Below are positions 2,113 through 3,790 of a stretch of 6,001 nucleotides of DNA, in pieces; position 1 is the stretch's first letter; every line of letters begins with the position of its first letter. The notes beneath the pieces are model-generated. The model ran no database searches. It was not told where the DNA came from and saw only the letters and a program-made list of their open reading frames with translations. This DNA is from a virus. Lineage: Duplodnaviria > Heunggongvirae > Uroviricota > Caudoviricetes. The stretch is taken from the IMG/VR virus record IMGVR_UViG_3300013741_000057; one strand, given 5' to 3'. The position numbers and the translations under genes are program-made.

Positions 2113-2676
2113 ATGAGGCTAACCGTGGGTAAGCATCACTGGAAAGTAGAAAAACAGCCTGAGTGGTACGTGAAAGCTGTCAGAAAAACTATCGCAGCGT
2201 TGCCGGGGGGTTACGCTGAAGCTGCTGACTGGCTGGATGTAACAGAGAACGCTTTATTCAACCGCCTTCGTGCAGATGGCGATCAGATTTTCCCGCTGGG
2301 ATGGGCAATGATTTTACAGCGCGCGGCTGGCACTCACTACATTGCGGATGCTGTCGCACAGTCTGCTGGTGGGGTGTTTGTATCGCTTCCTGAAATTGAG
2401 GAAGTAGAGAACGCCGATATAAACCAGCGCCTGCTGGAAGTCATCGAACAGATCGGGAGTTACTCAAAGCAGATTCGTTCGGCAATCGAAGATGGGGTAG
2501 TGGAGCCACATGAGCAGACAGCAATTAATGATGAGTTGTATCTGTCAATTTCGAAGCTCCAGGAGCATGCAGCACTGGTCTACAAAATCTTTTGCGCTCC
2601 AGAAAAGAGTGACGCCCGCGAGTGTGCAGCTCCGGGCGTCGTGGCGTTTTGTGTCTGTGGAGAAACTAACGCATGA
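2113..2676 (+). CDS. CII-like / YdaT-like phage regulatory protein
   Basis: ORF immediately downstream of cro and the third gene of the immunity module. The family call (CP76/YdaT-type CII analogue) rests on position and my recollection of that family. The start is uncertain: ATG 2113 has a weak RBS, and in-frame GTGs at 2125 and 2170 are alternatives. Confidence 0.6.
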   Translation: MRLTVGKHHWKVEKQPEWYVKAVRKTIAALPGGYAEAADWLDVTENALFNRLRADGDQIFPLGWAMILQRAAGTHYIADAVAQSAGGVFVSLPEIEEVENADINQRLLEVIEQIGSYSKQIRSAIEDGVVEPHEQTAINDELYLSISKLQEHAALVYKIFCAPEKSDARECAAPGVVAFCVCGETNA

Positions 2677-2775
2677 ACAGTTTAACGGCAAATAACCGTT
2701 TGTCGCAACAGCTGGTGGTCAGTGTCGCTGCACACCTGTTGTTACGGCATGAATGCAGATTACCAAATCACCTGG

Positions 2776-2791
2776 CTGTAAGTAACCACAG
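2776..2791. promoter_or_regulatory. SOS-box-like motif CTGT-N8-ACAG (CTGTAAGTAACCACAG)
   Basis: The only CTGT-N8-ACAG match I found by manual scan. It lies about 30 bp upstream of the candidate GTG start at 2822. The spacer is less AT-rich than a consensus LexA box, so any affinity may be modest. Confidence 0.3.
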
Positions 2792-2821
2792 AGAACTTTA
2801 CCTGACTGTGGGGGGCGAGTT

Positions 2822-3001
2822 GTGCAGGAACTTAACCGCTGGTTTCGTGACGGAAGAGGGCTTTATGTTCATGTTATTCGTTGGGAGCCAGAAACACAGC
2901 GCGTTATCTATCTTCGCAAAGACTACCCGCATGAGTGCTTTAGTCCTTTGTGGAAATTCAGGCGTGATTTTGTTGAGTGTGAAGGACCACCAGCACATTG
3001 A
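2822..3001 (+). CDS. Candidate small prophage protein (59 aa) hidden in an alternate frame of listed ORF 2673-3701
   Basis: GTG start with a G-rich RBS-like run (GGGGGG 2810-2815); stop TGA at 2999-3001. The translation VQELNRWFRDGRGLYVHVIRWEPETQRVIYLRKDYPHECFSPLWKFRRDFVECEGPPAH looks like the small conserved prophage proteins I recall as DUF4222-type (unverified). Arg codons are mostly CGN here, while the overlapping frame-0 reading uses AGA/AGG further upstream. Against it: no ATG start, a Trp/Arg-rich composition, and the unlikely chance openness of frame 0. Confidence 0.4.
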   Translation: MQELNRWFRDGRGLYVHVIRWEPETQRVIYLRKDYPHECFSPLWKFRRDFVECEGPPAH

Positions 3002-3086
3002 TTCTGCCATTCCGGGACGTTACACTGTTCAGGCACCTTATAAAACGGGTGCCGGGCGTGGAAACCCGGAATTCACCAAAGCGCAC

Positions 3087-3109
3087 AACCGCGCTCTTGC
3101 GGTTTTTTT
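3087..3109 (+). terminator. Candidate intrinsic terminator or structured element (AACCGC-GCTCTT-GCGGTT plus 7 T)
   Basis: 6-bp stem with loop GCTCTT followed by TTTTTTT. If real, it would end transcription of the 2822-3001 gene and argues against frame-0 coding here. The stem is only moderately stable. Confidence 0.3.
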
Positions 3110-3278
3110 GTGTCATGAGCAGCATTACGCCCAAATTATGGTGGGGCGTGCAGGGCCAACTTCGGTTGGGCCGGGTTCTTTGGTGACCGGTATTTCCACC
3201 CCTGTACGTCTCACCACCAATAAGGTCGTGGAAAGCCTTGGTGGTGAGTTATTAAAAATCACCAAAGAGGCTGCCATC

Positions 3279-3790
3279 ATGGCTACGATCCCAACCCTCA
3301 CTCAACCTGAAATTGCCATCGTTGATGGTCAGGCTGTTACTTCATCCCTAGCTGTTGCCAACTTCTTCTCCAAACGTCATGACGATGTACTGAAAAAGAT
3401 CCGCACGCTTGAATGCTCAGCATCATTCACTGCCCGCAATTTTTCGGTGAGTGATTACACTGATTGCACAGGACGCAAACTTCCTTGCTACCAAATCACA
3501 CGCGACGGTTTTGCGTTTCTTGCTATGGGTTTCACGGGTAAACGTGCTGCCCAGTTCAAAGAGGCATATATCAATGCCTTTAACCAGATGGAAAAGCAGC
3601 TTTCAAAGCCATCCACGCTAANNNNNNNNNNTCAATTCATCAGGCCTGGTTGCAGCAGCTTTATCCCATGCTGGAAAAAGCTGAATCACCGCTGGCAGTA
3701 AGTCTGTATGACCGAATTAACGATGCGGCATTTCTTGCCCGTCTTATTCATTCGTCGCTGAACTCTTCAGAGGTAAGGGGGCGCAAATGA
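3279..3790 (+). CDS. Rha-family phage regulatory protein, with reading frame disrupted by the N-run at 3621-3631
   Basis: ATG at 3279 with RBS AAGAGG at 9 nt spacing. The N-terminus MATIPTLTQPEIAIVDGQAVTSSLAVANFFSKRHDDVLKKIRTL matches the Rha domain pattern as I recall it. After the N-run the protein-like continuation (SIHQAWLQQLYPMLEKAESPLAVSLYDRINDAAFLARLIHSSLNSSEVRGRK) is in a different frame and ends at TGA 3788-3790, overlapping the next start. The listed frame-0 tail to 3701 looks out of frame. Confidence 0.6.

Follow-up and report, generated by a model that had tools for sequence, protein, structure and literature searches.

A long reading frame across a P4/P1-type RNA cassette ahead of a Rha-family gene in a lambdoid prophage, a probable counterpart of P4 eta

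In a stretch of 6,001 nucleotides (nt) of the IMG/VR record IMGVR_UViG_3300013741_000057 (hereafter the window, whose positions serve as coordinates), a long open reading frame (ORF) begins at ATG 2673 on the plus strand and runs into a Rha-family gene, and the question it raises is whether this frame, which we call frame 0, is one protein, an accident or something else. A preliminary description of this DNA had considered the listed ORF of 342 amino acids to be probably a chimera, on evidence that was in conflict. Our comparative analysis indicates that 2673-3790 is probably an RNA immunity cassette of the P4/P1 type controlling a Rha-family (Bro-network, anti-repressor-type) gene, with the long frame as the counterpart of P4 eta. 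From its ymfM-like start (MNSLT..R.SQ), the ORF passes through a DUF4222 gene, a promoter block, isrK, C4, a leader and finally Rha. The locus is already known in type from P4 eta/kil-CI, P1 c4 and Gifsy-1 isrK, and what is added here is the DUF4222 layer and the ymfM start.

The RNA cassette within the long frame

Two RNA genes that had gone unrecognised lie inside the long ORF. The first is an isrK-like small RNA (plus strand, 3033-3109; Rfam RF01394, 67.9 bits, gathering score 50), the equivalent of P4 seqA and P1 a1/b1, which carries a1 (3057-3064, plus strand, CGTGGAAA) in the loop of its hairpin 2 and b1 (3073-3081, plus strand, TCACCAAAG) further on. A terminator scan placed an intrinsic terminator on the plus strand at its end (stem 3087-3104, T-run to 3109), so that the hairpin with seven Ts seen earlier at 3087-3109 is the terminator of the isrK match. 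The c4-a1b1 model RF03163 gave a weak match at 3020-3072, whose 22.6 bits do not reach the gathering score of 46.7. The second RNA gene is a C4-type antisense RNA (plus strand, 3134-3221), matching Rfam RF01695 over the full length of the model (1-87) with 83.6 bits (gathering score 45, E 5.5e-16). It contains a loop b' (3178-3186, plus strand, CTTTGGTGA) and a single-stranded a' (3193-3199, plus strand, TTTCCAC), and its 5' end is the invariant ATTATGGTGGG with an in-frame ATG at 3138 that corresponds to the Gifsy-1 orf45 start. RNAalifold on 17 variants returned the Rfam fold, with double compensatory changes in 8 of its 27 pairs.

The target sites of this antisense RNA lie in the Rha leader (plus strand, 3227-3270), where a2 (3227-3234, plus strand) repeats CGTGGAAA and b2 (plus strand, from 3259, TCACCAAAGAG) covers the Rha Shine-Dalgarno sequence AAAGAGG (3264-3270). 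Loop b' is exactly complementary to both b1 (3073-3081) and b2 (3259-3267), and its helix with b2 comprises 11 base pairs (bp) including one G-U and extends into the Shine-Dalgarno sequence; a' (3193-3199) pairs with a2 (3228-3234) and also complements a1. Judged from the sequence, this arrangement of a'/b', a1/b1 and a2/b2 is the c4 layout of P1/P7, and we hold with high confidence that a P4/P1-type RNA cassette is present in the window. Ahead of it lies a putative internal promoter (plus strand, 2998-3026; TTGATT, 17 nt, TACACT; predicted start near 3033), a nearly invariant block that in 53 unique loci keeps a fixed distance of 105 nt to the C4 ATG, and whose position fits the isrK +1 of the Rfam model.

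The Rha-family gene proper, in its short form, occupies 3279-3790 on the plus strand (181 amino acids in relatives). Pfam Phage_pRha (PF09669) matches amino acids 21-106 counted from start 3279, with 109.2 bits against a cutoff of 29.9, and only there, which bears out the earlier remark that the frame looks like Rha only from 3279 and has a good ribosome-binding site at this point. This gene occupies the position of kil in P4 and of anrP in Gifsy-1, and the GAGGCTGCCATCATGGCTAC at its start is identical to the start region of P4 kil. It may act as an anti-repressor. Behind sister cassettes the cargo belongs to the Rha, ORF6N, Bro-N, P22 anti-repressor-N and P4 derepression families.

To compare cassettes we used 80 IMG/VR loci picked for nearly identical Rha and 120 C4 loci added by a pattern search. 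Cassettes of the window's class amounted to 45 unique sequences that fell into 20 clusters at <93% identity, referred to below as the 20 variants (pairwise identity 0.53-0.92). In the set of 80, loci whose Rha and upstream flanks are almost the same showed a divergence of ~35% confined to 3033-3278, with sharp borders at the isrK +1 and the Rha ATG. This divergence is spread evenly over the first, second and third codon positions (for example 8/9/8, 10/11/12 and 8/9/11 substitutions), and the C4 segment differs from ST64B by 4/2/0 with no third-position excess, compared with 25/14/52 for Rha and 49/27/100 for ymfL, the control genes, each counted in its own frame. The 20 variants comprise ~15 b' loop sequences and 7 a' sequences, with independent assortment of the a and b sets, and b1, b2, a1 and a2 change to match in every variant. 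The b':b2 helices average 11.8 bp for cognate and 6.3 bp for non-cognate combinations, and two further comparisons of cognate with non-cognate helices gave 9.3 versus 5.7 and 7.2 versus 5.1. These matched changes in the C4 loops and in both sets of targets indicate that 3033-3278 evolves as RNA.

This mode of evolution bears on the reading of the long ORF as a genuine multi-domain protein with a YmfM-like N-terminus, an Ash segment acting as protein and Rha. It is the reading that the annotation of 382-385-amino-acid "Rha family" proteins by GenBank and the Prokaryotic Genome Annotation Pipeline (PGAP) would favour, and both the gene-like codon statistics of frame 0 in 3002-3278 and a match of Pfam Phage_ASH (PF10554) to amino acids 117-201 (45.7 bits) speak for it. 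However, the Ash match (window 3021-3278) coincides exactly with isrK, C4 and leader, as it does in the P4 ORF, where amino acids 37-161 (82 bits) correspond to the seqA-CI-seqC region (L208, 8330-8704, minus strand). Conservation of Ash at the amino-acid level was not found: codon periodicity and third-position excess are absent, substitutions follow RNA pairing, and the changes among variants compensate at the level of RNA and not of protein. Half of the N-terminal part, moreover, overlaps a gene conserved in another frame. We regard a multi-domain protein as very improbable. The literature handles Ash and "Rha/Ash domain proteins" as a protein domain architecture of unknown function; in the window and in P4, Ash appears to be the translation of an RNA module whose conservation is apparently imposed by the RNA genes.

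Cassettes also occur in tandem. Arrays of isrK, C4 and cargo with differing a/b specificities were found on single contigs, with three C4 matches 656 nt apart in L116 and two matches each in L154, L005 and L179. In L038, a frame-0 ORF running into a further cassette opens with ggtaagggggcg.aaATGAtcc, like the 74-amino-acid ORF at 3787 of the window. In L094, L127, L172, L174 and L199, frame 0 from the C4 ATG is 1248 nt long and matches Pfam Ash and Phage_integrase, an integrase-like gene standing in frame with the C4 cassette.

Openness of frame 0 and its possible readings

Stop triplets in frames 0, 1 and 2 of the 20 variants number 0, 54 and 86, at 34 distinct alignment columns of which none is in frame 0, counts that overstate independence because the variants are related but whose direction is consistent. 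The same pattern holds for isrK plus spacer (0/19/45) and for C4 plus leader (0/35/41). Cassette length takes only the values 243 or 246 nt, both multiples of 3, and in the window's class the Rha ATG follows the C4 ATG in frame at +138 or +141, with the exception of one locus (L070). Codon log-odds, a crude measure trained on the window's own genes, give +0.29 per codon for frame 0 of 3002-3278 and -0.30 and -0.25 for the other frames, in agreement with the earlier impression that this part is coding-like.

The frame is also tied to what precedes it. As had been noticed, ATG 2673 overlaps the stop of the upstream gene, here the TGA of ymfL (aacgcATGAac), and this ATGA overlap recurs in unrelated contexts, with upstream ORFs of 708, 915, 1026, 1149 and 1689 nt besides ymfL (L104, L105, L114, L116, L173 and L038 have other upstream genes). 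Across DUF4222, frame 0 is open in the window, ST64B and Stx1_14040, and random synonymous recoding leaves it open in ~4% of cases. From these observations we infer that frame 0 is held open by selection, which would act on openness and not on amino acids. One locus with the window's own cassette variant, L070, has its Rha ATG at +140 through an apparent 1-nt deletion, and is the sole broken frame 0 in the 53 promoter-anchored unique loci.

The opposite reading is that of a pure artefact, in which translation is limited to DUF4222 and the short Rha that starts at 3279, and the long frame is a shadow ORF cast by stop-poor, conserved, G+C-rich RNA genes. It agrees with the lack of codon periodicity in 3033-3278, with amino acids that vary freely among variants while RNA pairing persists, with the evolution of 2822-3001 in the DUF4222 frame, with the stops that a Gifsy-like class of cassettes carries in frame 0, and with other long, evidently spurious ORFs of the window, such as that of 167 amino acids at 1578-2081. 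Against it stand the absence of frame-0 stops, which includes the hypervariable loops, the spacer and the leader, the cassette lengths, all divisible by 3, the recurrence of ATGA coupling with different upstream genes, the ~4% chance of an open frame over DUF4222, and the report that the homologous P4 frame, eta, is translated and functional (PMC10111431). An artefact of translating RNA genes, as the whole story of the ORF and of Pfam Ash, was dropped on the grounds of stop avoidance, frame length, ATGA coupling and the P4 precedent, and we consider it unlikely.

A narrower possibility is translation of an orf45-type leader, starting at ATG 3138 and yielding Rha with 47 additional residues, or coupling into ATG 3279, with nothing translated upstream. 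The invariant ATTATGGTGGG contains ATG 3138, which shares the frame of the Rha ATG and matches the first AUG of orf45, at +107 of isrK in Gifsy-1; translation of orf45 was detected in Salmonella and is required for translation of anrP (PMC4825925). This reading leaves unexplained the stop avoidance in isrK and spacer, the open frame through DUF4222 and the ATGA coupling to upstream genes, and no Shine-Dalgarno sequence precedes 3138. As the only translation it seems improbable, but it can be compatible with an Eta-like frame.

Eta-like translation of the long frame, which by analogy with P4 we judge rather likely, also has points against it besides the relatedness of the variants. In the Gifsy-1-like C4 class a stop lies just ahead of the C4 ATG and the ORF is short, 14-45 codons; some of these loci show the orf45 geometry, in which the ORF stop overlaps the AUG of the next gene. 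An open through-frame is therefore not universal among C4 cassettes. Stop-free runs of >140 codons without a known gene are not rare in the window, since other long ORFs, at 1578-2081 (plus strand, 167 amino acids) and 5160-5585 (plus strand, 141 amino acids), overlap annotated genes that are read in a different frame or from the opposite strand. The first segment of the ORF, 2673-2821, has no coding signal in any frame. The promoter block matches the consensus at 8 of 12 positions and a scan of 2600-3400 with a threshold of 9/12 called no site, so that the proposed promoter draws on its conservation and position. Finally, sequence and comparison show the RNA genes and their complementarities, the way the cassette behaves, a frame that is maintained and its signals of coupling, whereas translation of the long frame, activity of the promoter, processing of C4 and an anti-repressor role of Rha would be expected by analogy with P1, P4 and Gifsy-1.

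The start and full extent of the long frame

The segment at 2673-2821 (plus strand, segment A) forms a linker of the long ORF that is poorly conserved, occurs only in ymfL-type contexts and is absent in L209. Relative to ST64B it shows 77% identity, substitutions of 7/13/13 and one in-frame 6-nt deletion, and its codon log-odds are ~0 in every frame, none being favoured. Of the rare AGA/AGG codons reported for this segment, AGA is indeed present twice, and AGG sits just past 2821. The ORF begins as ymfM, the SfiC gene of e14: like ymfL-ymfM (SfiC division inhibitor) of e14 and SfII, it has the ATGA overlap with ymfL and the N-terminus MNSLT..R.SQ, and its frame 0 crosses the DUF4222 ORF as in SfII and Klebsiella phages. 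The difference is that in SfII and e14 ymfM ends after 112 amino acids, with no RNA cassette or Rha behind it, while in the window the resemblance in segment A is lost after ~12 residues and the frame goes on into the cassette.

At 2822-3001 the protein-like alternate frame that had been pointed out is, on the evidence of sequence comparison, a real separate gene, nested out of frame and wholly inside the long ORF. This DUF4222 gene (plus strand, 59 amino acids) has a GTG start and a GGGGGG Shine-Dalgarno sequence, and its frame matches Pfam PF13973 with 51.1 bits. Substitutions counted by frame-0 codon position amount to 3/15/3 versus ST64B and 6/28/8 versus Stx1_14040, an excess that falls on the third position of the DUF4222 frame, and the codon log-odds favour that frame (+0.20 versus +0.03). 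Each DUF4222 lineage has its own Shine-Dalgarno sequence and a GTG, ATG or TTG start. The possibility that a programmed frameshift links ymfM to DUF4222 was also considered and set aside, as DUF4222 has its own Shine-Dalgarno sequence and start codon in every lineage.

Loci without the cassette, namely SfII (L212, 671-1029), two Klebsiella phages (L213 and L214) and L215, have a frame-0 ymfM of 112 amino acids, ATGA-coupled to ymfL, that overlaps a conserved DUF4222 ORF lying in another frame. Between SfII and KpF5 the substitutions are 3/26/7 in the DUF4222 overlap and 15/16/27 in the part covered by ymfM only. The SfiC work assigned the filamentation phenotype through expression of the ymfM ORF, and the passages searched do not tell the ymfM and DUF4222 frames apart (bioRxiv 2020.11.19.390815).

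Regarding its other end, frame 0 as read in the window is open from ATG 2673, as had been stated, to 3701, giving 342 amino acids including 4 X. This end is not real. A run of 10 N at 3622-3631, which had also gone unrecognised, stands for ~44 nt: the closest relatives, which differ from the window at 17 of the 949 positions before the run, have 44 nt at this site, a net gain of 34 nt, and the resulting shift makes both the stop at 3701 and the "342 amino acids" artefacts. Past the run, the Rha frame is the one that ends at TGA 3788-3790, and the whole frame 0 (plus strand, 2673-3790), an Eta-like read-through frame, has 383 amino acids in relatives. No sequence was recovered for 3622-3631, as no loci with identical flanks were found; the relatives nearest to the window show small differences immediately ahead of the gap, and what is established is the length difference and the downstream frame.

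Full-length homologues comprise 383 amino acids in close E. coli relatives and mEp460, 382 in cdtI and 385 in ST64B, while the homologue in Stx1_14040, an ORF of 341 amino acids without segment A, starts 2 nt past the upstream stop. Two findings had been named in the preliminary description as speaking against a chimera, full-length homologues of the frame-0 product and frame-0 coding statistics well above those of the alternate frame in 2822-3001; the homologues exist, and the statistics favour the other frame. The ORF is thus composite, with a separate gene inside it and Rha having its own start, and in this sense the description as a chimera is partly borne out, but it is not an accidental fusion or one made by annotation, given the 0/54/86 stops, the length in multiples of 3, the ATGA coupling and the ~4% chance of openness. 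The Stx2a phage Stx2_499 (L210, 1778-3087) has an IS629 insertion in its homologue of the long ORF, directly after the DUF4222/promoter region, and the record labels the split ORF as an interrupted pseudogene.

Relation to known RNA systems and proposed operation

In P4 (NC_001609) the Rfam C4 model matches at 8420-8507 and the isrK model at 8615-8692, the latter being a seqA-type element with a T-run. We take the C4 match to be the CI RNA, the immunity factor of P4, which is an RNA rather than a protein. An ORF of 214 amino acids (8812-8168) spans both RNA matches and ends in the 65-residue kil. Both loci therefore contain, in the same order, a promoter inside a long ORF, a seqA/isrK-like element with a T-run, CI/C4, target sites over a Shine-Dalgarno sequence and an ATG, and in both the long ORF lies over the RNA genes, shares the frame of the downstream start (2673-3278 with ATG 3279 in the window), opens with a cgcATGA overlap with the upstream gene and shares the start region GAGGCTGCCATCATGGCTAC. 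According to a 2023 summary, a constitutive promoter lies inside eta, its transcripts are terminated through CI/seqA interactions to give CI RNA, Kil is a truncated Eta, and full-length Eta is made only on transcripts from an upstream promoter, with its translation coupled to the preceding gene and preventing termination; the same source notes that the Rfam C4 and isrK models find CI and seqA relatives inside Bro-network genes (PMC10111431). The window differs in its cargo, a 181-amino-acid Rha-domain protein in place of the 65-amino-acid Kil, in belonging to a lambdoid prophage with ymfL as upstream partner instead of the alpA homologue, in its terminator-to-C4 spacer of 24 nt versus ~108 nt, and in having the out-of-frame DUF4222 and the ymfM-like start inside its ORF.

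The P1/P7 immI region (c4, icd, ant1/ant2) resembles the window in having a C4 with a'/b' directed against a2/b2 at a ribosome-binding site, upstream a1/b1 and matched variation. As reportedly described by Citron and Schuster in 1990, C4 a'/b' pair there with a2/b2 at the ribosome-binding site of the gene before the anti-repressor, a1/b1 copies lie upstream, and heteroimmune variants are said to differ in these short sequences. The window, in contrast, has no icd-like leader gene, b2 covering the Shine-Dalgarno sequence of Rha itself, its downstream protein is of the Rha family and not P1 Ant, and the isrK terminator stands between a1/b1 and C4. The anti-immunity locus of N15, in which CA RNA reportedly controls antA/B/C (Ravin, 1999), is likewise said to belong to a lambdoid-type temperate phage whose small processed C4/CI-like RNA holds an anti-repressor operon off, although with other cargo genes and no known Eta-like through-frame.

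For Gifsy-1 isrK-orf45-anrP, the report by Hershko-Shalev (2016) describes a 77-nt isrK with a terminator, read-through into a conserved region of ~140 nt and then an anti-repressor-type gene, which was regulated by the isrK-orf45 RNA region in experiments (PMC4825925). In orf45 the nucleotides are conserved and the amino acids are not, and it yields a stable processed RNA of ~80 nt, STnc1160; Hfq binding by isrK and trans-activation of the downstream gene have been shown for Gifsy-1 only, and the passages searched contain no mention of P1 (PMC4825925). Judging from the homologous locus in the window, the orf45 RNA region would be in the position of the Rfam C4. Gifsy-1 differs in that orf45 is a separate ORF of 45 codons whose stop overlaps the anrP start (AUGA), whereas the corresponding ATG of the window shares the Rha frame, which is open far upstream as well; Gifsy-1-like loci carry ORF6N-family cargo, not Rha.

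The operation that we propose for the window extends the work on P1, P4 and Gifsy-1. In the lysogen, transcripts from the internal promoter would be short and untranslated, and would either stop at the isrK terminator or give C4 RNA by processing. C4 would then pair with a2/b2, occlude the Rha ribosome-binding site and block Rha translation, probably with a polar effect on the downstream replication genes, and isrK, through a1/b1, may pair with C4 and modulate this block. Given the ATGA coupling to ymfL, the long frame would be read only on upstream early-promoter transcripts after loss of the repressor. These would bring ribosomes from ymfL into frame 0, and ribosomes crossing the cassette would prevent the terminator and C4 structures from forming, so that an N-terminally extended Rha and the downstream genes are expressed regardless of RNA immunity. 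The P4 eta/kil model resolves in this way the conflict in the earlier evidence, as the frame would be translated only on upstream transcripts, over an RNA module.

More tentatively, a joint reading of these data would be that of a "ribosome-transit" frame with a swappable barcode, in which only openness and upstream coupling are selected and the cassette specificities are heteroimmunity groups. If so, whether Rha and the replication genes are subject to the isrK terminator and the C4 block would depend on the promoter at which a transcript starts, and the ~15 b and 7 a specificities would divide lambdoid prophages into many heteroimmunity groups. Pfam Ash would then have arisen as a by-product of conserved RNA, the "orf45" region of Gifsy-1 would be a C4 RNA with IsrK as its seqA/a1b1 partner, and the out-of-frame DUF4222 would be a third layer in the same stretch. 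The range of cassette specificities suggests RNA-based cross-immunity between co-resident prophages, and the module would offer a testable route by which anti-repressor-type and replication genes of Stx- and e14-type prophages obey or escape RNA immunity. The literatures on P4 CI/eta/kil, P1 c4 and Salmonella IsrK/orf45 appear to treat one module, and thousands of E. coli and Salmonella prophages carry proteins annotated as "Rha family, 383 aa" or "Rha/Ash domain" with the RNA genes unmarked.

The window as a whole comes from an e14/mEp460/SfV-like lambdoid prophage of E. coli, whose immunity and early-right region it covers in the gene order ymfK, ymfT, ymfL, long ORF, 74-amino-acid ORF, replication gene, PerC-like gene and others. 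The ymfK gene (1116-1790, minus strand) encodes a LexA-like repressor and is followed by the cro-like ymfT; ymfL (2113-2676, plus strand), annotated under this name in relatives, is a CII/CP76-family early gene (Pfam Phage_CP76, 54.6 bits). A second run of 10 N is found at 509-518, upstream of the repressor region. The stretch 2600-3800 gave Megablast matches in 75 phage records and, among 5426 complete E. coli genomes, in 2987.

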